A DNA stretch of 32,000 nucleotides from Acholeplasma laidlawii PG-8A. GTDB lineage: Bacteria; Bacillota_I; Bacilli_A; Acholeplasmatales; Acholeplasmataceae. Shown piece after piece: positions 5,558 to 23,325 of the stretch. Under the pieces are notes generated by a model, which ran no database searches, was not told the origin of the DNA, and worked only from the letters and a program-made list of their open reading frames with translations. Each line of letters begins with the position of its first letter. Position 1 is the first letter of the stretch. The DNA lies in assembly GCF_000018785.1 (NCBI RefSeq), contig NC_010163.1:1020001-1052000 (forward strand). The letters run 5' to 3'. The translations under genes were made by a program, and so were the position numbers.

Positions 5558-6376
5558 ATGGACATTTTAAAAACATTTTTAACTGAGTGGTTAACAGGTC
5601 TAGCATTTGACCCTGTATTAGTTAGTTTAATCGTTACTGTTGCTTCAATTTTTGGTTGGATACTTATTGGTTCTGTCTTTCATATGGTCATTAAATTGGT
5701 CATTTCAAGACTTAAAGCTAAAGAAAAACGTATGGTGAGACGTCAACGTACTGTTGCAGCACTCATATTGGCCCTTATTAAGTATTTGTTCTGGTTTGTT
5801 ATGGCCATGATGGTCTTAAAAGAATTTGGCCTTGATTTAGCCCCAATCCTTGCAAGTGCCGGTATCTTAGGTTTTGCTGTTGGCTTTGGTGCACAAGAAC
5901 TTATTAAAGACATGATAGCTGGATTCTTTATTATTTTTGAAGGTGCGATGAGTGTAGGAGATTTTGTTGAAGTTGGTAATTTTTCCGGTACCGTTCAAGA
6001 AGTAGGTATTAGACGTACCAAAATCTTAAATTGGAAGAATGAATTGAGATTAGTGAATAATGGTGATATTAAATCACTAACCAATTTTGCAGGTAGAGAT
6101 TCAGTGGGTGTTGTAGAGTTTTTCGTATCTGCTCAGTTTGATATAAATCATTTTACAAGTGATTCATTTAATGAGCTACTAGCTAGTTATAAAAAGTATG
6201 ACGCTATTACTGAACTTCCAAGTTATCAAGGGGTAGTGGATACACAGTTACATAATTTAAAACTAAGAGTTATTTTTAAGACTCAAAATCAAAAGCATTA
6301 CAGTATCGAAAGAGATTTAAGACGCGATATTCAAGTGTTTATTCAAAGCATTCGAGAAGAAACTAAAGTGTTTTAG
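5558..6376 (+). CDS. mscS: Small-conductance mechanosensitive channel (MscS family)
   Basis: TM helices followed by GAQELIKDMIAGFFIIFEGAMSVGDFVEVG..GTVQEVGIRRTKI, the MscS TM3/beta-domain signature. I prefer the ATG at 5558 over the listed GTG at 5543, because GTGAGG looks like the RBS. Confidence 0.85.
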   Translation: MDILKTFLTEWLTGLAFDPVLVSLIVTVASIFGWILIGSVFHMVIKLVISRLKAKEKRMVRRQRTVAALILALIKYLFWFVMAMMVLKEFGLDLAPILASAGILGFAVGFGAQELIKDMIAGFFIIFEGAMSVGDFVEVGNFSGTVQEVGIRRTKILNWKNELRLVNNGDIKSLTNFAGRDSVGVVEFFVSAQFDINHFTSDSFNELLASYKKYDAITELPSYQGVVDTQLHNLKLRVIFKTQNQKHYSIERDLRRDIQVFIQSIREETKVF

Positions 6377-6383
6377 AAAAAAG

Positions 6384-6430
6384 CCGACTAGGTAAGAATG
6401 GGAGACATTCTAGTACCTAGTCGGTTTTTA
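6384..6430. terminator. Bidirectional intrinsic terminator (end of mscS and end of the minus-strand fibre operon)
   Basis: Long hairpin CCGACTAGGTA (6384-6394) / TACCTAGTCGG (6414-6424) with inner AGAATG/CATTCT pairing. Flanked by AAAAAA upstream and TTTTTATTTTT downstream. Confidence 0.75.
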
Positions 6431-6443
6431 TTTTTATATATGA

Positions 6444-8681
6444 TTAATTTCTATTTGGATTCCATTCAATAGGGTGTTCTTTCCATACTGTGAAATCTAT
6501 ACCTGGTACATTTGTTTGATCTGTTGGGTTTGTAGGTAATAATAACTCCCAAAAAGACCCGTCGTATATAACAAAATCACCTTGTAGATATCTATTTGTT
6601 GATACCCAAACATCAGTTAACTCGTTCCAACCATTTCTACTAGTACCTGGCTCTGAAGTATTAGTTGTATCATGATTACCATACCATACATAATATTTAC
6701 CTTCATGTTCTACGATGCTCACTTTAGAACCTGAGCGATAATACATCGCTGTAGGGCTCCATTTTAATGATAATGGTTGCCACGCTCCAGAAACACCTGG
6801 TATTTGATTTTGTGAAGTCCCACTTCTTAGAATGTAGAGATCATTATTATAACTAACGATTGAATCTTGAACGTATGTATTTTTAAAGTCCCAATTTTCT
6901 TCTAATGACCACCAACCTGATGTTGTCTCTGGATTGGTGTTTATTGTTGCTGTTGGGTTATTCCAAAAGTATCTTTTACCATTGTAGATTATACTATCAT
7001 AACGGTTATAAGTTGTTGTAGATAGATAATTTCCACGATGATTGAGTAATCTCCAGTTTGCACTTGAACCCGGTGTATTACCAGTACTTACAGCATTAAC
7101 TGCAATGTAGTATTGATTATTATAAGAGACAATACTTTGAACTGGATATGCTCTATTAACATATTCTATGCCAAGTCGTTGATATCCATAAGCACCTAGT
7201 GCAGGTACACTCCAGTTTTCAGCTACCGTTACTTTATAATAATATCCCTCATGATATACATACTCGCCTGACTGATATTTACCCTTATTATGCTCACTGT
7301 AATTGATACTCATGTATTTTAAATTGTAGTGTTGTTCAATAATTTCACTATGTGCGGTAAAACTACCGTAAGACACATACCATGACTTAATATCATTAGA
7401 TAGTGTATAAGTTACATCGCCAGGAGTATATACTTTACCTGTTTCATGTTCTAAACCTAAGAGTTCCCATGCCCATGCTAGTGGTGGAGGATTTCCAGCC
7501 CATACATTAGCTTTTGCACGATAAAATTTATTATTATAGTAAATAATTTCACCAGCTAAGTAAGCTCTTGTATCAGAGTAGTATACAGAAATAGTTTGCC
7601 ATGCCCAAGGAGATGCATCTGGTTCTGCACCTGTAGATGCTTGTCTAGCTTTATAATAACCAGCGTTAACCCCATTACCACTTAAGTCATCATAGTAGAC
7701 CATATCACCAGATTTATACGTAACATTTGGTTGCCAAGTTGGCACCATGGAAGGTGCATACAACACATCTTCTAATCCCCAACTTGTAATTGGCCCATAA
7801 GTTATTTGAATTTCAATTGTATTTCCATTTCTTGAGACTGTGAAATTAAGATGGTTTACTAAATTAATTCTAACATCATAAGTACCCGCAGGAAGTGTTA
7901 AACGGTTAGATAGTGCAGATCTTGTATGCCAAATATAACTAAAGTTATTTGTACCTGATTTAAACTCCACATACACACCACGCGTATATTGAGGATTAGA
8001 TACTCCATTAAAAATAACATTTAATGATTGACCTGAGATATTGGAAGGTACATTAAATTGCTTAATTACGTGATTAGAAGCTGCTAGATTCCAATTTGAA
8101 GATCGATTAGTTTGAACAGCTGATACTACTAAACTTAGTTTTAAAACGGCATTATTTGATAAGTCGTTTAATACACTTGTATTCACAGATGCATTAGTGA
8201 TAAATCCAACATCAAATGGTGTTAAGCCTTTTGATAAGACTTGATCATGCATATAGTATCCTGAATTATCGATACGGTTTGATTGTGCATAATTCCATGT
8301 AAACACATTAGGTTTATTTTGTACAACGTTGTTTACAGTCCATACTTCGACTAATTTAAATCGAACATTAACCGTTTTTAATGCAGTGATTAAAACATTT
8401 ATTGAAAGCGGAAAAGTTGAACCACTTAAATTATTTGAGATTTGTGATTTAGTAAATTGAATTGCATATTCTGTTTGATTATAATAACTACTGTTATAGT
8501 CTAGTGGTTGAGAACCTAATTGTACTCTTGCACTTGATGATATAAGTTCTGTACTACGTGCATTAAGGTCAAGTGCCTCAGTTGAAGGTTGTAGTGTAAA
8601 CCATGCATAAGCACCTACTATTGTTGATAGGAAAACGGTTGTCATAAGAAATAATATAATGATTTTTTTTATTTTTCTCAT
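6444..8681 (-). CDS. Large secreted fibre-associated adhesin: SipW-type signal peptide, N-terminal beta-rich domains and about nine CBM5/12-like carbohydrate-binding repeats
   Basis: The N-terminus TIVGAYAWFTLQPS matches the SipW-cognate signal class (TasA GGTWAAFND, CalY GGTFAYFSD). Residues about 314-735 (nt 6477-7742) contain about nine repeats of 40-48 aa with the pattern W..n.Y..GD.V.Y.n..Y.a...t...P......W. An example is YLAGEIIYYNNKFYRAKANVWAGNPPPLAWAWE, which matches the chitin-binding type 3 / CBM5_12 consensus. Confidence 0.7.
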   Translation of the reverse strand: MRKIKKIIILFLMTTVFLSTIVGAYAWFTLQPSTEALDLNARSTELISSSARVQLGSQPLDYNSSYYNQTEYAIQFTKSQISNNLSGSTFPLSINVLITALKTVNVRFKLVEVWTVNNVVQNKPNVFTWNYAQSNRIDNSGYYMHDQVLSKGLTPFDVGFITNASVNTSVLNDLSNNAVLKLSLVVSAVQTNRSSNWNLAASNHVIKQFNVPSNISGQSLNVIFNGVSNPQYTRGVYVEFKSGTNNFSYIWHTRSALSNRLTLPAGTYDVRINLVNHLNFTVSRNGNTIEIQITYGPITSWGLEDVLYAPSMVPTWQPNVTYKSGDMVYYDDLSGNGVNAGYYKARQASTGAEPDASPWAWQTISVYYSDTRAYLAGEIIYYNNKFYRAKANVWAGNPPPLAWAWELLGLEHETGKVYTPGDVTYTLSNDIKSWYVSYGSFTAHSEIIEQHYNLKYMSINYSEHNKGKYQSGEYVYHEGYYYKVTVAENWSVPALGAYGYQRLGIEYVNRAYPVQSIVSYNNQYYIAVNAVSTGNTPGSSANWRLLNHRGNYLSTTTYNRYDSIIYNGKRYFWNNPTATINTNPETTSGWWSLEENWDFKNTYVQDSIVSYNNDLYILRSGTSQNQIPGVSGAWQPLSLKWSPTAMYYRSGSKVSIVEHEGKYYVWYGNHDTTNTSEPGTSRNGWNELTDVWVSTNRYLQGDFVIYDGSFWELLLPTNPTDQTNVPGIDFTVWKEHPIEWNPNRN

Positions 8682-8685
8682 AGTA

Positions 8686-9318
8686 TTACACCATAACCTT
8701 TACACGGTATACGAGTGCATGATACACAGACTTTTGAGCCGTTGTAAGACCATCATAAGCGCCCCAAACATAAATGTATACACGTATAGATGATTCACCT
8801 TGAAGTGAAAATCCTGCTAAATTATGTTGATTCATCGCTGTAAACACACTACCAGTTGATTGGAAATATTGAAATCTATTTGCCATGTATACAGTTTGTG
8901 TTAATGTAGGATGTTCTTCTAGCACAAGATATTTTAAACCAGCTTGATTACCAGCATACACACCAAATTCAGGTGCTGCTACAACATTAAGTTGTAGATT
9001 CACATTCACTGATGTTAATCCTGGATTAGTAATAACAATTTCAAGTACTGATGCATATCCATAAAAGTTAAAACTTGTATCATTAAAATCACTATCATTT
9101 AAGTAAACTAAGTCTCTTATGCGATCTCCTAAAAAGATACCTTCAGTTTCAGCATCAATTTCTAAGACATCCTCATTACCCATTAATGAACCTTCAAAGT
9201 AATCTACATTTGCACGATTGCCATAGTCAATAAACCAAGCAAAAACGCCAGTTGCCATGGAAGCCACTGATACAAGTAAGAATATGATTAAGATAACTGA
9301 TCTTCTTAATGATTTCAT
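8686..9318 (-). CDS. SipW-dependent-type signal peptide protein (TasA/camelysin-like, small paralogue)
   Basis: N-terminus SMATGVFAWFIDYGNRANVDYFEGS. C-terminal VYIYVWGAYDG motif is shared in degenerate form with three paralogues upstream. GAAAGG RBS lies 5 nt from the ATG. Confidence 0.6.
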   Translation of the reverse strand: MKSLRRSVILIIFLLVSVASMATGVFAWFIDYGNRANVDYFEGSLMGNEDVLEIDAETEGIFLGDRIRDLVYLNDSDFNDTSFNFYGYASVLEIVITNPGLTSVNVNLQLNVVAAPEFGVYAGNQAGLKYLVLEEHPTLTQTVYMANRFQYFQSTGSVFTAMNQHNLAGFSLQGESSIRVYIYVWGAYDGLTTAQKSVYHALVYRVKVMV

Positions 9319-9333
9319 ACGTACCTTTCCGAT

Positions 9334-9399
9334 GCAACTGGCTGTCTATTACTAATTAGACCCTTTAGTTTTGCGTCCTTAAGTTACCTTAAGTTTGCC
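9334..9399 (-). promoter_or_regulatory. c-di-GMP-I (GEMM-I) riboswitch aptamer, intra-operon copy
   Basis: Minus strand reads GGCAAA-CUUAAG-GUAA-CUUAAG-GACGCAAAACUAAAGG-GUCUA-AUUAGUAA-UAGAC-AGCCAGUUGC. It has the GGCAAA, GNRA-capped P1 hairpin, GACGCAAA and CAGCC.GUUGC hallmarks of GEMM-I. It starts 3 nt after the sipW stop and ends about 6 nt before the RBS of the next gene. Confidence 0.75.
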
Positions 9400-9401
9400 T
9401 T

Positions 9402-9995
9402 TTAATCTTGACGTTTGTCGTTTTTTTGTTTTAATTCTTGTTTATATTTTTCTAAGTCTGTTTTATATTTATATTTTTGACGCTCAGTAATTTGATAAAT
9501 TACTATGAGTAGTTGAAAAATAAATATAAGTGCAATAATTAATATGATGATACCAATGACTAAGAGTCGTTCATTTACTAAATACCTTCCAATAAAACTA
9601 CCACCACTCCATACTACTTTAGATAAGTACTTTTCTTTGGTAATATAACCTTCAGTATCAAAATCACTTTCATCATTATTGACACCTTTTGTAATATAAC
9701 CTTCTGGGTTTTCAGAGATAATTTCATGGATTATAACTCGGTTATCCATAGATGTGAACGCAATGACATCTCCAATTTTCAAGTTATCAAATGCTACATC
9801 ATTCATAATAACAAAGTCCCCAACAAGGATTTCGGGTTCCATAGATGGTGTAAGTACTAAACCGTAACTAACACCTAAAATTGAAAATGGCTTTTTAGTT
9901 ATTTGACTTAATAAGGACATTGTAACAAATATGAGTGTGAAGAATATGATGATTGTTACAATAATCTTTTTAGTATGATTAATTGTCTTTTTCAT
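9402..9995 (-). CDS. sipW: Signal peptidase I, SipW (ER/archaeal S26B) type, paralogue 2
   Basis: N-terminal TM, LTPSMEPEILVGDFVIM (catalytic Ser box as in B. subtilis SipW SGSMEP), IIHEI (His box), KGVNNDESD, a C-terminal TM and a K/E-rich tail. ATGA overlap with the upstream gene. Confidence 0.8.
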   Translation of the reverse strand: MKKTINHTKKIIVTIIIFFTLIFVTMSLLSQITKKPFSILGVSYGLVLTPSMEPEILVGDFVIMNDVAFDNLKIGDVIAFTSMDNRVIIHEIISENPEGYITKGVNNDESDFDTEGYITKEKYLSKVVWSGGSFIGRYLVNERLLVIGIIILIIALIFIFQLLIVIYQITERQKYKYKTDLEKYKQELKQKNDKRQD

Positions 9996-11773
9996 TTACC
10001 TTTTTTTAAAGCAGCCATTGCTTTATCATGAGATGCTTTAATTTTCTCTTTTTGTTTATCAATGTATTGTTTTTGTTTTAACTTTTGCTTTTCTTTAGAA
10101 ATTCTAAGTTTTTCTTGAGCTTTTTCTTTACGTTTTCTTAGTCTTTCTAGTTCACGCTCAGCCTTACGTTTTTGAATATCTGCAATACGTTTAGCTTCTT
10201 TTTTGTATCTTTCACGATACTGTGTTTTTAATTCAAGCAACATTTCATTATCTTTTGCAACTTGAACCTTTTGTTCATCAAGCATTTCAACACGCTGTAA
10301 TTTTATGTACTCTTCATTTAGTTCACTAACTCTTTTAGCTTCTTTTTTAAGCTTTTCATCACTGTCTAGTTTAACAGACTTGAAGAATCTTTTTTGATAT
10401 CTAAGTGTTGTTTGATACCATTTTTTCTCTAGTGCGATTGCTTTTTTGTAATCAGCTTCTTTTAGTTGTCTTACGATAGATGCAATTTTAAATTTTTCAT
10501 CTGCACTATCTAAGTCATCTTTAGGGTTAGTTTCTTGAACTAATCTATCGAAGACATCATCGTCTTGATTGATTTCAAAATAAGATGCATAAAGACTGTT
10601 TGTTATTTCTATCGTATCTTTTAAAGCTTTTCTTAATGCGACTTCATATTTAGGTTCTGTCTGCATGTACTGATCAATAGTTTTCTTAAACATCTGTTTT
10701 GTCTTGTTTAAGTAAAATTCATTCATCAAAGTATCTTCAATTTTATAGCTTTCAGGATCGATTTTAAGTTCATCCGCAGTAAGTTTTATTTCTTCTGCTT
10801 TTTTCACCTTAAAACTTTTGGTTAATAACTTTTGGTCTTTTTCTCTTACAACATCATGAAACATCATGGTTGAGAATGCAAATAATGCATTTTGACTTAA
10901 GTGTTTACGATATGTTTCATTAAATCTTTTTTGTTTTACATCACGAATAAGTTCAAACCCTAAACTATTGTACTGGTCTAAGTATTGCCAGAGTAGGTAA
11001 CAATTTCGGTAGTTCGTATTTTTTAAGATGATTTGTGTTTTCATGATTGGGGCTTTTACCTTTCGGTAATTGCGCATCGTCTTCATGAATTCAGTATTTA
11101 AAGCATTTGCTAACTTTTTGTGAAGTTCTTGTGCACGTGCTAATAACTTTTGATTATCTTCTTCAATTTTACCTTGATCGATAGTTTGAACTTCTCTTAA
11201 ATCTATATTAATTTCATATTTTGAATTATCTATGGATAACTCAATGGTATTATTTAACTCTTTAATCTTTTTAGTATTAACGTCTTCTTCAAGTATTCTC
11301 ATACGTCTTGAGACAAAATCTACTAAACGTTGAATCAGAGTTGCAACAAATCTATTTTCATAAATACCAAACTCATCTTCTGAAAATTCAACTAAAAGCT
11401 TTTTAGGCATAACCTCAGTTGTTGGTTGATCTTTGTCTGGTAGTTTGAGTAAGTGTGTATTTGCAGCTAAGTGTCTAACAGTTCTAGATGTAGTTTTCTT
11501 TGCTTTTTCAACAATTACGACTTCCTCTTCAACTCTTAAGGCTGATTTGTAGTTTCGTAATATTTTATCTACATAAGGATAGTATGATTCAATAGCAAAT
11601 ATCCAGTGATCATCGAACTTTTTTGTTTCTGTTGTCTCTACTTGCTTAAGTTTATTTACGCCATCATATAAACCTTGATAAAAGTAAACAGGAAAGTCAG
11701 TATCTTCTTCGAGTTCATCAAGTCTTGAGATTAACATGGTGTAGAATAAATCTAAATCATAGCTATTTTTCAA
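9992..11773 (-). CDS. Cytoplasmic 593-aa partner protein: McrC/DUF2357-like N-terminal region, no recognisable nuclease motif, long K/E-rich coiled-coil C-terminus
   Basis: TTG start with a GAAAGG RBS, 15 nt after the ATPase stop. The FGIYENRFVATLIQRLVDF and NYRNCYLLWQYL motifs resemble the ENRF.. and Y..l..lW..L motifs that I recall from McrC/DUF2357 proteins. I see no PD-(D/E)xK-like D...(D/E)xK block. The last 130 aa or so are a K/E/R-rich heptad-like sequence (KRKAERELERLRKRKEKAQEKL...). Confidence 0.45.
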   Translation of the reverse strand: MKNSYDLDLFYTMLISRLDELEEDTDFPVYFYQGLYDGVNKLKQVETTETKKFDDHWIFAIESYYPYVDKILRNYKSALRVEEEVVIVEKAKKTTSRTVRHLAANTHLLKLPDKDQPTTEVMPKKLLVEFSEDEFGIYENRFVATLIQRLVDFVSRRMRILEEDVNTKKIKELNNTIELSIDNSKYEINIDLREVQTIDQGKIEEDNQKLLARAQELHKKLANALNTEFMKTMRNYRKVKAPIMKTQIILKNTNYRNCYLLWQYLDQYNSLGFELIRDVKQKRFNETYRKHLSQNALFAFSTMMFHDVVREKDQKLLTKSFKVKKAEEIKLTADELKIDPESYKIEDTLMNEFYLNKTKQMFKKTIDQYMQTEPKYEVALRKALKDTIEITNSLYASYFEINQDDDVFDRLVQETNPKDDLDSADEKFKIASIVRQLKEADYKKAIALEKKWYQTTLRYQKRFFKSVKLDSDEKLKKEAKRVSELNEEYIKLQRVEMLDEQKVQVAKDNEMLLELKTQYRERYKKEAKRIADIQKRKAERELERLRKRKEKAQEKLRISKEKQKLKQKQYIDKQKEKIKASHDKAMAALKKGK

Positions 11774-11788
11774 ATAGAGTCAACCTTT

Positions 11789-13339
11789 CTACATTTGTTT
11801 CTTATAGTTGTTAATCATATTACGTGCTTCAGTAAATGATTGTTTACCAAATAGTTTATCAATTAAAGCAATAAGCTCATCTAATTCTTTTCTTAAGAAT
11901 GGTAAGTTTAAGAACTCAAATTTACGTAATACTTTTCTAGTTATAATATAATCAAGACCATCTACCTCAGATTGTCCACAAGCAACGAATATTGGCACAA
12001 ATGTATTGATTTGTTTCATAATACGGTTACCAAATGTAATTTGGAAATTTTGCGTAATGAACTCATCTATTTTTTTAAGATTTTCTAATGATTTTTGAGA
12101 AATCGGGTTCATTTTTACTGCTTCTTTAAATAATGCATCCATGTAATCATGTGTGACATGAATTGAATCTGTGAATGGTGCATCAATGTAATCTGCTCTT
12201 ACAGATAATTCAATAGATGCAGCACGGTCATATACTTTATCTGTGATTGCAAATGTTGAGTCATCACGGTTAGCTGTACCTATGAACCAAATATTTGGTG
12301 GTAACAGTAGTTTTCCTTCTTTTAAGTGTATTGGATCACCTGGAACAGTATCTGATGTAATATCAATTTCCCATTCACTTGTATTTGGCATTTCCAATAT
12401 AGATAAGAAGTCAGCAAAGTAGTATTCAACACGCGCTAAGTTCATCTCATCTAATACAATAAAGTTTAGGTCAGTACGGTAAGTGGCTTCATAAATAGAT
12501 TTTAAGAAGTCAGTCTCATTAAATTTTTTGGTAAATTCATTTAGATATCCAATCATTTCTGCGCGATCACGCCATGATGGCTGCACAGAAATGATTGAAG
12601 TATCGTTATTAAAGAATTTCCCCATAGAATAAGGTAGAGACGTTTTACCAGTACCTGAGATCCCTTCTAAGATAATAATCTTTGAAGACCCCATACCTGC
12701 AAAAAATATTGAAACAATTTTTGGCGAATAAAATAATTTTAATTGTGATGCTGCAAAGTTAATAAATCTATCAACAAGTTGATTTAAGTTAAGCATATCT
12801 GACTCTGTCATGTTGGTTTGAAGTACTTGCATATGGTAAGTTTCATCCACTGCAATAAGCTTTGTAAAACGTGAAGTTTGTTCTTCTAACTTTTCATCCT
12901 CTTCCTCGTTTAACTTAGCTAATGTACCGGTTACACTACGACGATTCATAGGTAATCCTAGGTCACTTGATTTAAGTGTTAATATTGCATTTTTTTCATC
13001 AGTTACATCAATCAGTTTTTGATTAAGTTCTGTGATTTCAATTAAAAGATCGTCTTTAGAAACTTCCTTTTTCACGAATCTAAAATATCTACGCAATAGT
13101 ACGATGATAAAGTAAGCTAGTGATACAATAAATATGAAATTGATGATTAGTATTAATATACCAATGATCCAGTCCAAAGCGTTAAAGTTCATGCTTGCAT
13201 TTACAAATGAATCTAACATGTTCGATGGATTTACCCATAAAGCATAGTAGAATGCATTAAATATGGTTGCAAAGAATGATGCTACATACTCAAAAACAGT
13301 TTGGATGAATTCTATGTACCAAGTTGCAAACTCACTCAT
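11789..13339 (-). CDS. Membrane-anchored McrB-like AAA+ (AAA_5) NTPase
   Basis: Two N-terminal hydrophobic helices (about aa 15-35 and 57-82), then a coiled-coil linker. Walker A IILEGISGTGKTS (nt 12641-12664), SVQPSWRDRAEMIGYL, Walker B/McrB-type FIVLDEMNLARVEYYFADFLSILE, and LLLPPNIWFIGTANRDDSTFAITDKVYDRA (compare McrB iP.N.yiiGTMNtaDrs...D.AlrRRF). Confidence 0.7.
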   Translation of the reverse strand: MSEFATWYIEFIQTVFEYVASFFATIFNAFYYALWVNPSNMLDSFVNASMNFNALDWIIGILILIINFIFIVSLAYFIIVLLRRYFRFVKKEVSKDDLLIEITELNQKLIDVTDEKNAILTLKSSDLGLPMNRRSVTGTLAKLNEEEDEKLEEQTSRFTKLIAVDETYHMQVLQTNMTESDMLNLNQLVDRFINFAASQLKLFYSPKIVSIFFAGMGSSKIIILEGISGTGKTSLPYSMGKFFNNDTSIISVQPSWRDRAEMIGYLNEFTKKFNETDFLKSIYEATYRTDLNFIVLDEMNLARVEYYFADFLSILEMPNTSEWEIDITSDTVPGDPIHLKEGKLLLPPNIWFIGTANRDDSTFAITDKVYDRAASIELSVRADYIDAPFTDSIHVTHDYMDALFKEAVKMNPISQKSLENLKKIDEFITQNFQITFGNRIMKQINTFVPIFVACGQSEVDGLDYIITRKVLRKFEFLNLPFLRKELDELIALIDKLFGKQSFTEARNMINNYKKQM

Positions 13340-13368
13340 AATTGACCTTCTTATTTTATGTTAATAGT

Positions 13369-14058
13369 TTATTTTTTGTTGCTGTGTTTTTCTAATAATT
13401 CTTTTTCTAATTCTAAACGAAGTGCTTCTTTTTCAAGAGCATATTTTAATTCTAACTTTTCTTTGTTGCGTCTTAATATATATCTAATTAAGATAACAGC
13501 TTCAAATGTAAATAGAATAAACAGTGGTAAGATGACATAGAATACTAATCCGTTTGGCGTACGTATTTCTTGAATTGCACTACCAACACCAGACCAATGT
13601 CCTGTATATCTTCCTATAACATCATCTAGACTAGATGCTTCTAATTGCATATTAGGATCAAAGTTTGTACCATCAAATGAGCCGTACATACGTGCATTGA
13701 CATCACCTTGAGTTACTACTGTGTCTCCTGTAATAGTTTTGATTCTATGGATGATATGTATACGTTGAACGTTATCATAAAATACAATGATTTGACCAAC
13801 TTCTAAGTTTTGTTTTTGACTATCACTTAGAATATCTATAAATACTAGGGAGCCTGTATCAAAGTTGTCTTTCTCTTCACCTTCCATCGATCCAGATAGA
13901 ATAGAAACGAAGCCTTTACCAAAAATATTCGGTAAATCTTTTTCGGTTCTAACTGTTAGGTTGGATATTGAAAAGAGTAATAACATTAAGAGTAATAGAT
14001 AAAATACAACATTACCCACAATCCCTAAATACTTAAAGACTCGTTGTTTACTTGACAT
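13369..14058 (-). CDS. sipW: Signal peptidase I, SipW type, paralogue 1
   Basis: ILSGSMEGEE (Ser box), IHIIHRIKT (His box), TQGDVN and VIGRY all parallel B. subtilis SipW. C-terminal TM followed by a K/E-rich tail (LELKYALEKEALRLELEKELLEK). Confidence 0.85.
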   Translation of the reverse strand: MSSKQRVFKYLGIVGNVVFYLLLLMLLLFSISNLTVRTEKDLPNIFGKGFVSILSGSMEGEEKDNFDTGSLVFIDILSDSQKQNLEVGQIIVFYDNVQRIHIIHRIKTITGDTVVTQGDVNARMYGSFDGTNFDPNMQLEASSLDDVIGRYTGHWSGVGSAIQEIRTPNGLVFYVILPLFILFTFEAVILIRYILRRNKEKLELKYALEKEALRLELEKELLEKHSNKK

Positions 14059-14115
14059 GTGATATACCTCGTTTTAATTTTATGATTATATCATACCACT
14101 TTTAATTTAATTTAT

Positions 14116-14149
14116 GAAGAAAACCTTAATTGATTTCAAGGTTTTCTTC
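14116..14149 (-). terminator. Strong hairpin after the putative major subunit gene (partial terminator/attenuator)
   Basis: Perfect 12-bp inverted repeat GAAGAAAACCTT (14116-14127) / AAGGTTTTCTTC (14138-14149), 17 nt beyond the stop at 14166. The trailing U-tract on the minus strand is weak (AUAAAUUAAAUU). Confidence 0.5.
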
Positions 14150-14165
14150 AATATAATCAATAATA

Positions 14166-15077
14166 TTAAGCTGTTGCAGTAAAATTAAAGTTAACTGTTA
14201 AAACACCAGAAAGAATCGCGTTAAATGCTTCTTGATCCCAACCTTCAACCCAAACTCTAACTGTAATAGCTCCAACTTTTGCACTTGAACCACCAATTGC
14301 AGTTAATGATGATGTATCATAAGTATATCCTGAAATTACAGTTCCGTTCGGATTTAGTGCAGCAACAACTACAGTAAGTCCATTACCAGCTTGTTCTGTT
14401 GGTTTAAGAGCTAATGCAGCAGCAGCTGTATCAAAGTCGTTTTCAACAAGATCAGTATCCATGATAGCGTTATAGAATAAGATAGCTTCATTTGTAGCAT
14501 AAGTTCCAAAACCTAGACTATTTGTGTCAGTACCAACACTTTGCTCAAAAATTGTTGATGTTGTAGTAGTAATCATATCTTGGAAACTTACTCTTGCTGC
14601 ATTTGACACATAATCAAGGATTGGTGTATTTGCATCTGGAGCACCTGTTTGTCTAGTACCTGGTACATATATACCTGGAATCCAAGAAGTTTGTGTACCA
14701 CTAAGTGTTAATGAATCTATAATGATATTATTTAGGTTTGCAGAACCTGCAAACAATAAGTCAAATTCAATGAATCCAGCAGTTGCAGCTGTACTAGATC
14801 CTAGATCATATAAAGCTATACCATCTTGTGATGTTAATGGAACAAATGTTACAGCACCTGCAGCTGTTTGCATTTCAGTAGTTGTTAAAGTGTTTTTCCA
14901 AGTAGTTCCATCAAGTGAAACATAGAAACCTTCTCCGGTTTGAACTGTACCTGTGAAAGCTTCAATAGTCGCTCTATTATTAATTGTGAACCATGCTAAT
15001 ACCCCTACGGATAAAGCCACGCCTGTTAGTACTAATGCTAGTACCGACATAACTAATTTATTTGTTAATGATTTCAT
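14166..15077 (-). CDS. TasA-like fibre protein, probable major subunit (SipW-dependent signal peptide)
   Basis: Strongest RBS in the locus (TAAGGAGAGGAAAAAA-ATG). LSVGVLAWFTINNRATIEAFTGTVQTG parallels TasA GGTWAAFNDIKSKDATFASGTLDL. The mature part is T/A/G-rich with few charged residues. It ends VRVWVEGWDQEAFNAILSGVLTVNFNFTATA (compare the TasA C-terminal strand IKLQFSFEATQ). Confidence 0.7.
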   Translation of the reverse strand: MKSLTNKLVMSVLALVLTGVALSVGVLAWFTINNRATIEAFTGTVQTGEGFYVSLDGTTWKNTLTTTEMQTAAGAVTFVPLTSQDGIALYDLGSSTAATAGFIEFDLLFAGSANLNNIIIDSLTLSGTQTSWIPGIYVPGTRQTGAPDANTPILDYVSNAARVSFQDMITTTTSTIFEQSVGTDTNSLGFGTYATNEAILFYNAIMDTDLVENDFDTAAAALALKPTEQAGNGLTVVVAALNPNGTVISGYTYDTSSLTAIGGSSAKVGAITVRVWVEGWDQEAFNAILSGVLTVNFNFTATA

Positions 15078-15157
15078 TTTTTTCCTCTCCTTATTTAGGG
15101 AATTTTTTATTATTTATTTTTGTTACTTGGCTTTTAACCATTTATAACCTTATATTT

Positions 15158-16105
15158 TTATGATGCTTCAACATATCTGGCTGATCTTATATTTAAACTA
15201 ATAAGTAGTTTATCATCTAGTATCGGATCAAATGCATCTGCATCCCATCCTTCTAGCCAAATATTAATTGTTGTCATACCTTGATAAATGTAAGTTCCAT
15301 TATCTTCTGATATGAGTTGTAACTCTGCAAGTAAGCTTGTTTTATCTAGTGCTATATCATCTTGCAGTGGTGAAAATTTTGATAATTCATAGATTTCATT
15401 CGTTGGTGCTGGTGGTATTTGTAATTCAATACCTAAGCGCTTCATGAAATAATCATATGCTCCAAATACTTTTCCAAATCCTCGGTATCTATCTTCAGAT
15501 ACATCATATATGAATGATATATCAGGGTTTGGACTATCACTTGAAATTCTAACAGCATTTTTAGCATAATACAAACGATTTGTACCTGCAGGTATGATAC
15601 CCATACCATCATGAAATGCGATTGGGTTGGTCCATCTATTACCTTTAGATGTAACATATGTACCTTTTAGAGTAGATGCTTCATCATATACAGGATCAAT
15701 TTTATTTGATAGGTATATGAATTTTTGGTGTGCTCTTACATTTGGATTATCACTTGTTAATCTAAAATATAGATCAAAGGATATATAATCATCATTCTTA
15801 GTTGCCCTTTTAGTTAATTCATAAGGACCTTTGAAGAAGTTTTTACCATCTTGTGAAGTAATTGATGATAATACTGGGTTTTTACCAATAACATCCGATA
15901 ACATCTTATTATCTATAGTTTTATGATAAGTAATACCATCTAGTGACAGTTGAATGTTATCGTCTAATGAAATACCTATTTCAATAGCCTCAATCATATT
16001 TGTCTTAGATATTGAAAACCATGCATATACTGTAGTAGATAGTGTAATTGTTACACACATAAACGATATAATGAGTAAATAAAATTTCTTATGCATTTTA
16101 TTCAC
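15158..16105 (-). CDS. TasA-like fibre protein paralogue (SipW-dependent signal peptide)
   Basis: N-terminus LSTTVYAWFSISKTNMIEAIEIG. C-terminal INIWLEGWDADAFDPI motif is shared with the major subunit. 8-nt overlap with the upstream gene. Confidence 0.65.
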   Translation of the reverse strand: MNKMHKKFYLLIISFMCVTITLSTTVYAWFSISKTNMIEAIEIGISLDDNIQLSLDGITYHKTIDNKMLSDVIGKNPVLSSITSQDGKNFFKGPYELTKRATKNDDYISFDLYFRLTSDNPNVRAHQKFIYLSNKIDPVYDEASTLKGTYVTSKGNRWTNPIAFHDGMGIIPAGTNRLYYAKNAVRISSDSPNPDISFIYDVSEDRYRGFGKVFGAYDYFMKRLGIELQIPPAPTNEIYELSKFSPLQDDIALDKTSLLAELQLISEDNGTYIYQGMTTINIWLEGWDADAFDPILDDKLLISLNIRSARYVEAS

Positions 16106-16841
16106 CTGTTACACTTAAGATCATATTTAACTTTAATGATCCTCCAAGTAACTCTTCTTCAGTATATTTACCTATTTTTGATGTTAAATATTCTTCCAAA
16201 TATCCATCAATCCAAATAAATACTGTAACCTTTGAAACATCGCCTGCTTTGAGTTCAAATATATTTGAATCCACTGCAACCGAATTACTTCTAAACCTTA
16301 AGGATGAAACGTCATCTATTCTAAATGGTTGGAATTCATAGACATCTCTTACATCATCAACTACGACCATAATTCTTAAGTGTTCTTCAATATGATTATT
16401 TAATTCTTCAAACACTATTTTGTAGTTAATACGGTTTATTGTAGCTGTTTGATTCATGTTTTTAACATAAAATGTAAATGCTACAACTTCTCTATCTTTA
16501 TCTAAAACATTTTTTAGATAATATCCATTTGTATTTAGCGCTTCTTGATAGTGAAATGCCATAATACCCGAATAAGATGCTTGATTGACAAACGCAGTAC
16601 CTGGATACCTTAACACAGTTCTTGTATCTTTAAAATCTTCTGTTTCAGAGATTCTAATTGAGTGTCCACTAAAGTCATCAATCCTAACTGAGTAGTCTCC
16701 GGTATTTTGCCCATAAAACGATACAACACCTAATGTTAAGGATAGAAATCCAAATAACGGTATGAGCAGGAATATGAATTTAGATGTTCTGGTTGATCTT
16801 CTAATAGTGCTATTGATCCCCCAAAATTTAGTTGTCCTCAT
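16098..16841 (-). CDS. Divergent TasA-like paralogue with an atypical, possibly uncleaved, signal anchor
   Basis: Basic N-terminus plus TM (FIFLLIPLFGFLSLTLGVVSFYGQNTGD), with SFYGQ where the paralogues have AWF(T/S). C-terminal VTVFIWIDGYLEEY matches the family motif. First gene after the riboswitches (GAGGA RBS). Confidence 0.5.
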   Translation of the reverse strand: MRTTKFWGINSTIRRSTRTSKFIFLLIPLFGFLSLTLGVVSFYGQNTGDYSVRIDDFSGHSIRISETEDFKDTRTVLRYPGTAFVNQASYSGIMAFHYQEALNTNGYYLKNVLDKDREVVAFTFYVKNMNQTATINRINYKIVFEELNNHIEEHLRIMVVVDDVRDVYEFQPFRIDDVSSLRFRSNSVAVDSNIFELKAGDVSKVTVFIWIDGYLEEYLTSKIGKYTEEELLGGSLKLNMILSVTGE

Positions 16842-16861
16842 ATACGCATCCTCGTTTTATT

Positions 16862-16957
16862 AAAACAAAAACCAATTGCTTACCCTAGATAAGTGCAACT
16901 GGCTGCCTAATATATAGGCCCTATAGTTTTGCGTCATTAGGTTACCCTAATTTTGCC
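16862..16957 (-). promoter_or_regulatory. c-di-GMP-I (GEMM-I) riboswitch, proximal copy, with its own intrinsic terminator
   Basis: Minus strand reads GGCAAAAUUAGG-GUAA-CCUAAU-GACGCAAAACUAUAGG-GCCUA-UAUAU-UAGGC-AGCCAGUUGC. The terminator stem is CCAGUUGC (16895-16902) / GCAAUUGG (16872-16879), followed by UUUUUGUUUU. The terminator 5' arm overlaps the aptamer P2 3' strand. Confidence 0.8.
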
Positions 16958-16976
16958 AAAAACTTTACACATGCTT

Positions 16977-17004
16977 ATTTTAGCATATAGATTAAATTTG
17001 TCAA
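16977..17004 (-). promoter_or_regulatory. Sigma-A-type promoter driving the proximal riboswitch
   Basis: Minus strand has TTGACA (16999-17004), a 16-nt spacer and TAAAAT (16977-16982), about 20 nt upstream of the GGCAAA of the proximal aptamer. Confidence 0.5.
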
Positions 17005-17034
17005 CAAATTGTACTTAAAACGTCTTATAAAGCA

Positions 17035-17117
17035 ATAAAAACCAATTGCTATATAGCAACTGGCTATCCTAATTTGGACCCTGTAGTTTTGCGTCATTAA
17101 GTTACCCTAATTTTGCC
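17035..17117 (-). promoter_or_regulatory. c-di-GMP-I (GEMM-I) riboswitch, distal copy, with its own intrinsic terminator
   Basis: Minus strand reads GGCAAAAUUAGG-GUAA-CUUAAU-GACGCAAAACUACAGG-GUCC-AAAUUA-GGAU-AGCCAGUUGC. The terminator is CCAGUUGC (17056-17063) / loop UAUAUA / GCAAUUGG (17042-17049), followed by UUUUUAU. Confidence 0.8.
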
Positions 17118-17136
17118 TTTTTTATGATACGCTCAT

Positions 17137-17165
17137 ATTCTATCAAGTAATTTATTGCTTGTCAA
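17137..17165 (-). promoter_or_regulatory. Sigma-A-type promoter driving the distal riboswitch
   Basis: Minus strand has TTGACA (17160-17165), a 17-nt spacer and TAGAAT (17137-17142), about 20 nt upstream of the distal GGCAAA and just downstream of the stop of the GGDEF-EAL gene. Confidence 0.6.
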
Positions 17166-17184
17166 TAACTTTACATCATTATAT

Positions 17185-18585
17185 TTATTTTTCTAATTCT
17201 TTTCTAGCTTTTAAAAATTGGGTAGTATCAACAACATTCATTGGTTTAGTTAAATGATACCCTTGACCATAGTCTACACCTTTTAGAGTTAACATCTCTA
17301 CCATGGCTTGATCTTCAATACCTTCTGCAACAAGCATTAAAGACTTTTTCTTTACAAACTCAATAATCATATCTAAATACTTTCTAAAATTATAATTTTG
17401 TTCTAGTTTGAAGAAATCTTTGTTGAATTTAATCATGTCAATTTGGAATCTTTCAACCAAATCCATGACATCATAGTCAGTTGTAGATATATCTATAGCC
17501 AGTTTAAATCCCAGAGTTTTAATCTTTATTAGATTTCTTCTAAATACTTGATTATTCTTGTAAAGTGTAAAGTCAGGAATTTCTATTGCAATGTTTGATG
17601 CATCTTGACGATACTTTTCAACTAGTCGTTGAAAAATTGTAAATGTCATCTCATTTAAAATTTGTCTAGGTGAAACGTTAATATTAATTACAACATCATT
17701 AAGTCTTTGTTGACTTAAATCTACTAAGAGTTCAAGTGCTTGTTCAACTGCAATATTACCAATATCATCAAGTTCTCCTGTTTGCTCTGCAAGATGCAGG
17801 AACTTAGAAGGTGCTAATATCCCTTTTTTAGGATGATTCCATCGAAGTAATGCTTCTAGTCCATAAACTTTATTCATATCTTTTAAGTTGATGATAGGTT
17901 GATAATAATAAATGAACTCTTTATTATTTTTAGCATTTTTAAGTTCGTGAAATAAGTCTAAACTTTCTTTAGTTTGACTTAACTCCTCTGAATAATACTT
18001 AATGTCATTACCACCACTTCTTTTGACCATATAAAGAGCAATCTCAAGTGATTGGTATAATAAATCTAGATTTTCACCATGAAGCGGATAAGTAGCTATC
18101 GACATAGACACAGTTTTCTTTATTGTAACTTTGTCAAGAATTTGAATTTTCTTTTCTGCTTCTATCTTAATACTTTTTGCTAAATTATATATATTAGAGT
18201 GATCAAATGAAGCAGGTATATATAAATAGAAACGGTCAGGTTTTTCACCTCTAGCAATAACTGATTCTTCGGGTAGTGCACTATTAATGTGTTTTGAAAT
18301 ATAAGAAACGATAAATGTCTCTTCTTCTTTATTAAAAGTATCTACAATTTCTTGAAACTCATCTAAATCAACTAGCATTAAGGTAAAAGGATCATCTTTT
18401 TTCTTACGACGCTTAATAGCACGGTTAATCAATTGATTAAATACATCTATTGAAACAACCTCTTCAGATAATAGAAGTTTTTCATCTTTATATTTTCTAA
18501 TCTCAATTTTAAGTAAAAAGAATAAACCTATAATAAGGCCTATAATAACAACTACTATACCGAACATCAAAAGTATATCGGTCAT
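17185..18585 (-). CDS. Membrane-anchored GGDEF-EAL protein with degenerate GGDEF and partly degenerate EAL (possible c-di-GMP receptor)
   Basis: One N-terminal TM. The GGDEF position reads ARGEKPDRFYLYI. The EAL domain keeps EALLRW, NINVSPRQ, AEGIED and GQGYH, but has IAIEIPD and LAIDISTT where the metal-binding ELTE and DDFGTG motifs are expected. Confidence 0.8.
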   Translation of the reverse strand: MTDILLMFGIVVVIIGLIIGLFFLLKIEIRKYKDEKLLLSEEVVSIDVFNQLINRAIKRRKKKDDPFTLMLVDLDEFQEIVDTFNKEEETFIVSYISKHINSALPEESVIARGEKPDRFYLYIPASFDHSNIYNLAKSIKIEAEKKIQILDKVTIKKTVSMSIATYPLHGENLDLLYQSLEIALYMVKRSGGNDIKYYSEELSQTKESLDLFHELKNAKNNKEFIYYYQPIINLKDMNKVYGLEALLRWNHPKKGILAPSKFLHLAEQTGELDDIGNIAVEQALELLVDLSQQRLNDVVININVSPRQILNEMTFTIFQRLVEKYRQDASNIAIEIPDFTLYKNNQVFRRNLIKIKTLGFKLAIDISTTDYDVMDLVERFQIDMIKFNKDFFKLEQNYNFRKYLDMIIEFVKKKSLMLVAEGIEDQAMVEMLTLKGVDYGQGYHLTKPMNVVDTTQFLKARKELEK

Positions 18586-21061: not shown

Positions 21062-21790
21062 TTACGAATGTTTAATTCGAATATATGCTACCTTATCTTC
21101 ATTCTTAACTTCGAAGTCTTTAAATGTTTTAAAGAAGTTTAAAGCTTTTAGTTTAGAACCATAGTTTACAGGGTCAAAACCAGGGCTTTTCTTTCTTAGT
21201 TGGTCAGCGACTATACTCCAGTACGCCCAACCATCGTCTTCTAAGTTATCTTCAATAATTTTTTTAACTTCTTTAATAATTGTTTCCTTCTTAGGGATTA
21301 AAGAATTGCCATTTTTGTCTTTACGTTCTTTTTTAGGTTCTAACGCTTCTAGAATTTGGTCGATGTAGTAAAAACGCTCATAAGAATTAACTAATACTTC
21401 TGGAGTTTTTGACTCACCCATACCAATTAGATACATATTATCTTCTTTTAATCTAATAATTAATTTCGTAAAGTCAGAATCACTTGAGACGATACAAAAT
21501 GCATTCACCTTATTAGAATAGAGAAGATCCATAGCATCAATAACTAACGTAAAGTCTGTAGCATTACCTTTGTTTGATAGGTTTGCATATTGTTGGACGA
21601 AGGTAAGGCTGAATTTTTCAGCCTTACTACGCCATGTTTTTAATCTTTCTTGACTCCAATCCCCATAAACTCGGGCATTGGTGATTTTTCCATGTTTGTT
21701 AGCTTCATTTATAATAATATCTAAATAAATTGGTGAGATATTATCTGCATCAATTAAGAGTGCAATCGTATAATCTCTATCTGTCCTCAT
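21062..21790 (-). CDS. NYN (LabA-like PIN-fold) domain protein with C-terminal OST-HTH/LOTUS-like domain
   Basis: IALLIDADNISPIYLD...ARVYGDW...FCIVSSDSDFTKLIIRLKE is the LabA/NYN signature. The C-terminal region of about 80 aa (GWAYWSIVADQLRKKSPGFDPVNYG) resembles OST-HTH. Confidence 0.75.
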   Translation of the reverse strand: MRTDRDYTIALLIDADNISPIYLDIIINEANKHGKITNARVYGDWSQERLKTWRSKAEKFSLTFVQQYANLSNKGNATDFTLVIDAMDLLYSNKVNAFCIVSSDSDFTKLIIRLKEDNMYLIGMGESKTPEVLVNSYERFYYIDQILEALEPKKERKDKNGNSLIPKKETIIKEVKKIIEDNLEDDGWAYWSIVADQLRKKSPGFDPVNYGSKLKALNFFKTFKDFEVKNEDKVAYIRIKHS

Positions 21791-22659
21791 CTATTTTGAC
21801 CTATAAAGAACAGTGCAAGTGTACCATGTCCTGCATGAGCACCAATAACTGGTCCTAATGTATTAATTAAAAGAAACTCAACATCAAAGTGTTCTTTTAT
21901 CATTTCAGCTAACTTATTTGCATCTTCAAGTGCATTTGCATGAGAGATGAATACTGTTTGTTTACCTGGTTTAGCAGTTTTTTGCATTTCCTCAAATAAG
22001 CCTTTAACTGCACGTTTACGTCCAATGGCTTTATGACGTGAGATGAGTTTCCCTTCATCTGAAACGTGTAGGATAGGTTTAATGTTTGCAACCGTTGCAA
22101 TAAAACCTGCAACTTTTGAAACACGCCCACCTCGTACTAAATGAGATATATCATCTACTGTAAACCAATGAGCAACCGTAGGTGCTAACTTACTTGCGAA
22201 TTCATAAGTTTCTTCAATGGTTAGTTTTTTATCCATCGACTCTTTTGCAGTTAAATAGACAATTAATCCTTCACCTAGTGAAGCTGCTTTAGTATCAAGT
22301 AGCATAATTTTTCTATCTTTAAATGTTTCTCTTAGTTCTTCTGCAGCAATTCTTGCGCTATTAAATGTACCTGATAATGCGGATGAGAATGCTAGAATTA
22401 AAACATCTTGTCCCGACTTTAAGATGGGTGTTAATTTTTCAACATACTCTTCAGGGTTTACCTGGGAAGTTGTTGGTTTTGCTCCATTTTTAAGTTTTTC
22501 AAAAAACTCTGTAGGGTCAAGTTCTCTATTATCTAAGTAGTTCATGTACTCTTTACCATCTAAATTAAATTTTAGCGGCATTACATGTAATTTTAGTTCT
22601 TGTGCGATATGTTCAGGTAAATCTGTTGTAGAGTCTGTTAAAATTATAAATTTTGACAT
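21787..22659 (-). CDS. degV: DegV family fatty-acid-binding protein
   Basis: IILTDSTTDLP start, PTTSQVNP, SSALSGTFNSA and GPVIGAHAGHG are canonical DegV motifs. Confidence 0.9.
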   Translation of the reverse strand: MSKFIILTDSTTDLPEHIAQELKLHVMPLKFNLDGKEYMNYLDNRELDPTEFFEKLKNGAKPTTSQVNPEEYVEKLTPILKSGQDVLILAFSSALSGTFNSARIAAEELRETFKDRKIMLLDTKAASLGEGLIVYLTAKESMDKKLTIEETYEFASKLAPTVAHWFTVDDISHLVRGGRVSKVAGFIATVANIKPILHVSDEGKLISRHKAIGRKRAVKGLFEEMQKTAKPGKQTVFISHANALEDANKLAEMIKEHFDVEFLLINTLGPVIGAHAGHGTLALFFIGQNR

Positions 22660-22661
22660 TT

Positions 22662-23321: not shown

Positions 23322-23325
23322 ATGC

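Follow-up and report, generated by a model that had tools for sequence, protein, structure and literature searches.

Described systems closest to the operon

The closest named relative of the system described here is CoCoPALM, a clade that a census of McrBC systems set apart and linked to pilus assembly in a description of two sentences (Bell et al., eLife 2024; PMC11090510). As described there, CoCoPALM comprises an McrB-like NxD GTPase fused to an FtsB-like transmembrane (TM) and coiled-coil region, an McrC (DUF2357) homologue with coiled coils, and associated signal-peptidase genes. The account gives no substrates, regulation, host range or experiments (PMC11090510), and in the literature searched the name was found only in two versions of Bell et al., not in the supplement texts. 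The present subject is an operon of Acholeplasma laidlawii PG-8A, at positions 6444–17165 of a stretch of 32 000 nucleotides (contig NC_010163.1) that is referred to below, at its full length, as the window. The set of ATPase, partner and signal-peptidase genes in this operon is of the CoCoPALM class, which is named but uncharacterized. An earlier note, made from the letters of the same DNA, had listed as an objection that the gene set might already be characterized under another name; a name exists (PMC11090510), and no characterization comes with it. On balance, we lean slightly towards the view that the operon encodes a pilus-like surface filament of the CoCoPALM class, induced by cyclic dimeric guanosine monophosphate (c-di-GMP).

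Several better-studied systems resemble the operon in part. The tapA-sipW-tasA locus of Bacillus subtilis likewise encodes a dedicated archaeal-type signal peptidase together with its substrates. Both loci have signal peptides ending in T-aromatic-A|x-F, several related secreted subunits and a biofilm or adhesion lifestyle. Unlike that locus, the Acholeplasma operon has mature domains without detectable homology, two peptidases with five or more substrates, a cytoplasmic GTPase pair, c-di-GMP riboswitch control and a wall-less host. Escherichia coli McrBC shares the AAA+ GTPase core and the DUF2357-type partner domain, which in McrC activates the ring. Here, in contrast, the GTPase carries a membrane anchor in place of a DNA-binding domain, no PD-(D/E)xK nuclease was detected in the partner, and the operon is secretion-related.

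Type IV pili offer a further parallel. They too have a major and several minor pilin-like proteins whose globular domains vary behind a conserved N-terminal module, a dedicated peptidase, a cytoplasmic hexameric nucleoside triphosphatase (NTPase) at the membrane, and c-di-GMP as an ON signal; in the operon these features are predicted. The type IV pilus gene pilA1 of Clostridioides difficile is reportedly controlled by a c-di-GMP riboswitch. The differences are in the machinery. The cleavage site is not of the G|F-T-L-I-E class III kind, the peptidases are of signal peptidase I type, the NTPase is McrB-like, and a prepilin peptidase, a PilB/PilT-type ATPase and a PilC platform are all missing. 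A type IV pilus was rejected as an identity for the operon on the absence of a class III signal peptide, prepilin peptidase and PilB/C, and a sortase pilus on the absence of an LPXTG motif and a sortase.

For the regulatory region, the best-described counterpart is Bc3-5 of Bacillus thuringiensis, a triple-tandem c-di-GMP-I riboswitch made of class I ON units that precedes cspABCDE (PMC4759541). Both loci place complete class I ON units in tandem ahead of a surface-protein operon; the window has two and its relatives have up to three. Unlike Bc3-5, each tandem unit of the window has its own promoter, and the Acholeplasma-type operon contains a further set of aptamers internally. The downstream genes are unrelated, those of Bc3-5 encoding cell-wall-anchored proteins (PMC4759541).

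The McrB-like GTPase and its partner

Nine open reading frames (ORFs) on the minus strand run from 16841 to 6444 in the ORF list of the window. In 5'–3' order they encode proteins of 247, 315 and 303 amino acids (aa), SipW-1 (229 aa), the ATPase (516 aa), its partner (593 aa), SipW-2 (197 aa), and proteins of 210 and 745 aa. All coordinates below are on the minus strand.

The ATPase gene (11789..13339) encodes a membrane-anchored McrB-family AAA+ GTPase with Walker A motif GISGTGKTS, Walker B motif LDEMN and the signature N357-R-D359-D360. Hydrophobic helices extend to about residue 85 and are followed by a long helix, residues 95–126, which is a coiled coil, and then by the AAA+ core. A profile search of the Protein Data Bank (PDB) with this protein returned McrB proteins as the only matches. 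Direct comparison with E. coli McrB by hhalign gave a probability of 94.8% (E = 5e-8), and McrB of E. coli and of Thermococcus were the top Foldseek matches of the structural model, at probability 0.97–1.0. The two Walker motifs are invariant, as is N357-R-D359(-D360) in 20 homologues. The latter signature aligns to N-T-A-D of McrB, and N-x-x-D also fits. Over the AAA+ core the protein is matched by the PADLOC candidate defence family PDC-M26A (E = 6e-40), which is probably another McrB-like NxD branch, or may include CoCoPALM proteins. No DivIC/FtsB family was found in the Pfam scan of the N-terminus, which did not reproduce the published FtsB homology.

The partner gene (9992..11773) follows. 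Its product has a DUF2357-type N-domain, assigned via orthologues, and a C-terminal coiled coil within a K/E-rich stretch that covers the last 150 residues. DUF2357 is recognized at residues 25–161 in nine of 20 orthologues, the best scoring 45.6 bits against a cut-off of 23.3 (E = 6.9e-12), and the window protein aligns to the orthologues over its full length at about 35% identity. A PDB profile search with the partner gave only coiled-coil noise, and PADLOC gave no match. The Pfam scan of the 20 orthologues identified no nuclease of the PDDEXK family; a degenerate nuclease fold may nevertheless be present. An AAA+ ATPase and its partner had been seen in this position by the earlier note; they are present, and their specific McrB-like and McrC-like character is what that reading had missed.

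Related loci were collected by searching the species genomes of GTDB with the ATPase. At least 600 stretches matched, at least 578 of which encode a relative of the ATPase, and the loci studied are the best 80 of these 600 or more. The points of agreement with CoCoPALM are the McrB-like GTPase with N-x-D, its N-terminal TM and coiled-coil region, and the coiled-coil McrC (DUF2357) homologue. Signal-peptidase genes are also shared. Two of them flank the pair in the window. Of 83 sequences searched, a number that includes a second copy of the window, 75 have sipW-1 and 48 have sipW-2.

Predicted riboswitch control by c-di-GMP

The expected gating of the operon by a c-di-GMP riboswitch is supported by Rfam covariance models, applied at gathering scores of 35 for RF01051 and 59 for RF03167. 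Three aptamers are present, the internal third of which is an addition to the earlier note. The first two are c-di-GMP-I aptamers at the 5' end of the operon, rs1 at 17052..17127 (RF01051, 62.1 bits, E = 4.8e-10) and rs2 at 16891..16967 (RF01051, 58.7 bits, E = 3.2e-09). They form tandem full units, each with its own promoter, aptamer and terminator. Promoter P1 (17137..17165) reads TTGACA-17-TAGAAT and P2 (16977..17004) TTGACA-16-TAAAAT. Both are sigma-70-like, have a TG extension and match 11 of 12 positions, and they are the joint best such sites of the 11.6 kb scanned (6000–17600).

The expression platform of rs1 is an intrinsic terminator at 17032..17065 (-13.7 kcal/mol). It has an 11-bp stem ahead of a U-run, and its 5' arm AGCCAGUUGC doubles as the 3' strand of the aptamer. 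The terminator of rs2 (16862..16904) is built in the same way, as AGCCAGUUGC...GCAAUUGGUU and a U-run (-13.4 kcal/mol). In the ligand-bound aptamer, AGCCAGUUGC closes the second helix; in the ligand-free minimum-energy fold of either unit, AGCCAGUUGC is placed in the terminator. Because the terminator thus competes with the closing helix of the aptamer, both units are inferred to be ON switches, with a predicted response to the ligand. This regulatory logic, like the assignment of the proteins to families, is strongly supported.

The third aptamer, rs3 (9329..9408), is also of the c-di-GMP-I class. It scores 59.4 bits with RF03167, which belongs to the same clan (CL00126) as RF01051. It begins at the stop codon of sipW-2, and immediately after it come the ribosome-binding site, GGAAAGG, and the start codon (ATG) of the 210 aa gene. 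The Rfam label would make it a c-di-GMP-I-GGC variant, by a lead of 0.4 bit. This identity was rejected, as the defining nucleotide is A rather than G (ACGC-A-AA), as in the canonical class. In six other genomes, the aptamers found at this site score as ordinary RF01051, and most of the equivalents in more distant relatives have terminators.

A covariance model made from the three aptamers of the window was run over the related loci and found 105 aptamers, all on the operon strand and at two fixed positions. One to three aptamers lie 5' of the first operon gene in 36 of 49 evaluable loci, and one to three follow sipW-2 in 27 of 58. The design in which a terminator competes with the aptamer follows 80 of the 105. 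When six of the loci were re-checked with Rfam, all 22 of the 22 covariance hits were confirmed.

Signal peptidases and secreted proteins

The two signal peptidases, which had been called SipW-type in the earlier note, indeed both pass the TIGR02228 model (cut-off 51.85 bits). SipW-1 (13369..14058), of the archaeal or endoplasmic-reticulum type (S26B), scores 52.5 bits and carries the motifs SGSME, IHRI and QGD. SipW-2 (9402..9995), also of the archaeal or endoplasmic-reticulum type, scores 77.0 bits and carries PSMEP, IHEI and NNDESD; its start overlaps the partner stop by 4 nt. With NF046067, the equivalog model of Bacillus SipW, the scores are 59.1 bits for SipW-1 and 48.1 bits for SipW-2, both far below the cut-off of 190 bits. 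Judged by these profiles, the peptidases of the window are SipW-like and not SipW orthologues. Read by eye, both contain Ser, His and Asp motifs and, at the C-terminus, a second TM segment and a K/E-rich tail that is expected to be cytoplasmic.

Five further genes encode secreted proteins. The first is the 247 aa subunit paralogue (16098..16841), in which a TM segment precedes V-V-S/F-Y-G-Q, with the predicted cut at S|F; it has no match in Pfam or NCBIfam, and its family bears TFYGQ(N/D)xGNF across species. In the other four, the TM segment is followed by A-W-F instead of the V-S-F-Y of the 247 aa protein. The motif is V-Y-A|W-F-S in the 315 aa subunit paralogue (15158..16105; profile E = 6e-62), V-L-A|W-F-T in the 303 aa candidate major subunit (14166..15077), V-F-A|W-F-I in the small 210 aa tail subunit (8686..9318), and A-Y-A|W-F-T in the 745 aa candidate adhesin (6444..8681). 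The claim that A-W-F follows an N-terminal TM segment in three of the smaller proteins therefore holds, for those of 315, 303 and 210 aa. So does the description of the 745 aa protein as sharing this signal class and carrying a CBM5/12 array: its C-terminal half contains the repeats, recognized by PF02839 (CBM_5_12) with 31.2 bits against a cut-off of 26.2, in five stretches.

The motif is conserved well beyond the window. Among 82 related loci, a TM segment followed by A|W-F occurs in 216 of 803 operon-strand ORFs from 67 loci, mostly as two to four such genes per locus. These 216 ORFs have T or V at P3 in 83%, Y or F at P2 in 97%, A at P1 in 95% and F at P2' in 68%.

Four paralogues with a common C-terminal motif had been proposed. 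The quoted motifs are all present, and the paralogy is graded. Paralogy between the 303 and 315 aa proteins extends over their full length (BLASTP E = 1e-13 to 1e-15). Their family, here called the fibre family, matches that of the 247 aa protein over 212 columns (hhalign 97.7%, E = 1.9e-12). The two families share the C-terminal signature TV-x-x-W-x-EG-x-D...ILGG, and in the 119-member family alignment the W, E, G and D of WxEGWD are invariant or nearly so. By sequence, then, the proteins of 247, 315 and 303 aa are true paralogues. The family of tail proteins like that of 210 aa shares only the N-terminal module with the fibre family: about 47 residues match (hhalign 97%), which correspond to the signal peptide and some 20 mature residues. 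In the 745 aa protein, the match to the fibre profile is limited to the N-terminus and ends at about residue 86. The AlphaFold2 (AF2) model of the 303 aa protein, with a predicted local distance difference test (pLDDT) value of 86, is beta-rich and has five helices. Its family comprises 2543 clusters at 50% identity and is without a Pfam or NCBIfam model.

Between the three subunit genes and sipW-1 lies a hairpin with a 14-bp stem (14116..14149). A hairpin of -20 kcal/mol or lower follows the position of the 303 aa gene in 28 of the 40 loci listed, compared with 6% of random windows; its position is kept across loci and its sequence is not. This stem-loop probably attenuates transcription or stabilizes the mRNA. 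A single N-terminal module carried by otherwise unrelated domains, including that of the adhesin, together with a conserved hairpin behind the stalk genes would fit the usual grammar of an operon for a heteropolymeric pilus.

Operon boundaries, gene order and neighbouring genes

The nine genes are closely packed, with two overlaps of 8 and 4 nt and gaps of 4–107 nt at the other junctions. The 3' end is marked by a terminator at about 6378..6430, CCGACTAGGTA...TACCTAGTCGG followed by T6 (-24.7 kcal/mol), which is shared with the convergent gene. The automatic terminator scan missed it because of its long loop. The ORFs, the promoter scan and this hairpin agree with the single minus-strand string, bounded by two promoters at 17.0–17.2 kb and a strong terminator, that the earlier note had drawn. 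The wall-less host on which that note had speculated is a fact: A. laidlawii is a wall-less mollicute.

Two c-di-GMP genes recognized by Pfam adjoin the operon on the same strand. One encodes a 466 aa TM GGDEF-EAL protein (17185–18585) and the other an 801 aa EAL protein (18582–20987), and they keep their position in 31–37 loci. By eye, the 466 aa protein has RGEKPDRF for GGDEF, IDISTTDY for DDFGTGY and KFN for KxD. It looks degenerate in both domains and could act as a receptor of c-di-GMP instead of an enzyme. In the 801 aa protein, again by eye, the EAL catalytic motifs are kept and GGDEF is degenerate.

The best 80 loci come nearly all from Acholeplasmataceae, Anaeroplasmataceae, Izemoplasmatales, and metagenome-assembled genomes of unnamed Bacilli or Tenericutes. 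Among them, the gene order EAL, GGDEF-EAL, three subunit genes, sipW, ATPase, partner, sipW is met repeatedly, at ATPase identities of 51–91%, and the tail genes vary. The comparison of gene neighbourhoods that had been suggested as a check thus finds the gene set co-occurring, and its order recurring, across the Acholeplasmatales relatives.

Some loci are tandem clusters, namely L031/L034 (PGXL01000003.1), L015/L043 (DIER01000016.1), and also L039, L042, L052, L055, L056, L058 and L072. Of the two clusters in tandem, the one lying upstream includes subunit genes, a sipW gene and the ATPase gene; no partner was detected in it and it has no 5' riboswitch. Very close homologues of the ATPase (L010, L013, L078, L083 and protein P0109) are found in bins labelled Omnitrophota, Bacteroidales and Parabacteroides distasonis and in transcriptome data of the protist Anaeramoba ignava. 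Mis-binning or contamination with Mollicutes sequence is their most likely origin. Upstream of the GGDEF/EAL genes, positions 21062–24821 of the window hold genes for Wzz-like, CpsD/ParA-like tyrosine-kinase-type, CpsB-type phosphatase, DegV and NYN proteins. This is a set of capsule or exopolysaccharide regulators in a wall-less organism, adjoining the adhesion operon.

Proposed assembly pathway

A working model of a c-di-GMP-induced filament can be outlined. (i) When c-di-GMP rises, the ligand would keep AGCCAGUUGC in the aptamer, the 5' terminators would be blocked and the operon transcribed. A likely effect of the hairpin after the third gene is to hold expression of the three subunit genes above that of the machinery genes, and the third aptamer would gate or tune the two tail genes. 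(ii) The subunits would leave by the Sec pathway and remain anchored in the membrane through their signal peptides. (iii) The two SipW-type peptidases are predicted to cut at T/V-(Y/F)-A|W-F. (iv) The conserved N-terminal segment exposed by this cut would serve as the polymerization module of all subunit types, whatever globular domain each carries. (v) A predicted stalk of 303 and 315 aa subunits would be joined by minor subunits and the CBM5/12 adhesin through the same N-terminal module, with the F-Y-G-Q protein (247 aa) as a candidate base or initiator. (vi) On the cytoplasmic side, a membrane-tethered GTPase ring derived from McrB would be activated by the apparently nuclease-free McrC-like partner. 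The coiled-coil tails of the GTPase, the partner and both peptidases may couple GTP hydrolysis to the processing, assembly or anchoring of subunits.

Competing explanations

The reading offered by the earlier note was an expanded TasA-type fibre. Its subunits would be diverged jelly-roll proteins of the TasA/camelysin kind that join by passive donor-strand exchange outside the cell, and the GTPase would be an accessory, for example for anchoring. The signal region agrees well with this account. T-(Y/F)-A|W-F parallels T-W-A|A-F of TasA, and SipW reportedly accepts an aromatic residue at P2' (PMC10269814). SipW-like peptidases are encoded beside the subunit genes, and the modelled domain is beta-rich with few helices. 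PF12389 is the Pfam family matched most often in the subunit family, in 16 of 119 members against four for the next family, with a best E value of 0.0076 and every match below threshold. TIGR04088, with weak matches in 4 of 119 relatives, is the joint top NCBIfam model, tied with a PhrK-family model. The TasA reference for profile comparison was a 30-member alignment whose query covers the mature chain of PDB 8AUR (residues 28–261) except the final residue. Against it, the fibre family reaches E = 1.8e-4 and 48% probability in hhalign, over the first 50 or so residues only. Against the account stand the mature domains. With signal peptides removed, the probability is about 1% (E = 0.04–0.06), and hhalign finds no match between the fibre family and the single TasA sequence. 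No match attains a curated threshold, and the five secreted proteins of the window have none to PF12389 at E <= 0.1 and none to TIGR04088, so the profile searches proposed by the earlier note speak against its reading. The 303 aa protein and its family profile gave noise only, and no TasA, against PDB chains. The proposed Foldseek test of the same protein for the TasA fold gave no significant PDB match either; jelly-roll capsids, donor-strand pilins and an archaeal bundling pilus are among the matches listed, and TasA (8AUR, 5OF1) is not. TasA loci, moreover, are not known to have an NTPase. From the sequence comparisons, signal-peptide class and peptidase type appear to be common with TasA; the comparisons do not establish that the subunits are homologous. 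The cleavage motif and the two SipW-like peptidases are what survives of the TasA-type fibre, which we consider unlikely.

It is likewise improbable that no filament is made and that the secreted proteins are monomeric or membrane-associated adhesins or coat proteins matured by the peptidases, with the McrBC-like module and the degenerate GGDEF-EAL protein controlling their display or retention in response to c-di-GMP, loosely as LapD does. The catalytically degenerate appearance of the 466 aa protein and the lack of a structural match to any pilin favour this view. So do variant loci (L044:9-13546, L066:302-13467, L064:14-5593) in which the GTPase pair follows a 461 aa TM GGDEF-EAL protein and a giant protein, that of L044 having 2857 aa and 22 cadherin-like repeats. 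The subunit genes argue the other way. Most often two to four subunit-like genes occur in a locus, with one mature N-terminus on otherwise unrelated domains; the adhesin bears the same N-terminal module, and a conserved hairpin follows the gene of the putative major subunit. Far less probable still is a McrBC-type defence system that lies in a surface-protein operon by chance. The match to PDC-M26A would suit such a system, as would the fact that McrB restriction subunits are the sole relatives with a solved structure. Yet the place of the pair between two sipW genes is kept across dozens of genera-level lineages, with overlapping start and stop codons, and the pair lies behind c-di-GMP riboswitches. 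A membrane anchor replaces the DNA-binding domain, the partner has no detected nuclease domain, and the authors of the McrBC census themselves link the clade to pilus assembly (PMC11090510).

A c-di-GMP-induced filament of the CoCoPALM class is the reading that we prefer, and a number of observations weigh against it. The structural model of the ATPase is of moderate confidence (pLDDT 67). The partner of the window itself falls below every Pfam threshold and has no hhalign match to E. coli McrC. Folding of rs3 reveals no terminator, no obvious pairing that would mask the ribosome-binding site, and no recognizable expression platform in the window. Foldseek gave no significant match of the 303 aa model to the PDB (50 matches listed, E = 0.05–3), and the donor-strand pilins and the archaeal bundling pilus among them have E = 0.5–3 and probability <= 0.08. 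The three variant loci are without signal-peptidase or subunit genes, which shows that the GTPase module is not bound to such subunits; the GTPase pair with the GGDEF-EAL protein may be a portable core. To our knowledge, neither TasA-type fibres nor sortase pili require a cytoplasmic NTPase, and the GTPase could therefore serve something besides assembly. That the GTPase actively takes part in assembly or dynamics is rather doubtful in our judgement. Less certainly than the filament itself, the operon may represent an uncharacterized class of filament, common in wall-less Acholeplasmatales, in which pilin-like subunits are cut by archaeal-type peptidases, a membrane GTPase ring derived from McrBC helps to assemble, anchor or retract them, and arrays of c-di-GMP riboswitches govern expression.

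Significance

Measured against the literature found, several elements are new: the families of subunits with their cleavage motif, arrays of riboswitches at two positions, linked GGDEF/EAL genes, a conserved hairpin, and a distribution concentrated in wall-less lineages, with Acholeplasmatales dominant. The literature search found no publication that ties Acholeplasma to c-di-GMP riboswitches, SipW/TasA or pili. For A. laidlawii, 14 GGDEF/EAL proteins have been counted (PMC2408644), and the search found no publication on what its c-di-GMP signalling controls. An operon with three aptamers and two adjacent GGDEF/EAL genes is a concrete and testable candidate for that output. As A. laidlawii can be cultured, the predictions are directly checkable: induction by c-di-GMP, cleavage before W-F, filaments and their dependence on the GTPase, and binding of chitin or other polysaccharides by the 745 aa protein. 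The subunit family of 2543 clusters, which is without a Pfam model, could be defined from the present alignments.

We know of no characterized pilus pathway (chaperone-usher, type IV, sortase, curli or TasA) that uses an engine of the McrB/McrC type. If the favoured reading is true, restriction machinery has been recruited into a pilus or adhesin apparatus. If the operon does represent the class of filament suggested above, it would be the main c-di-GMP output of these organisms and would encode their first described pili.

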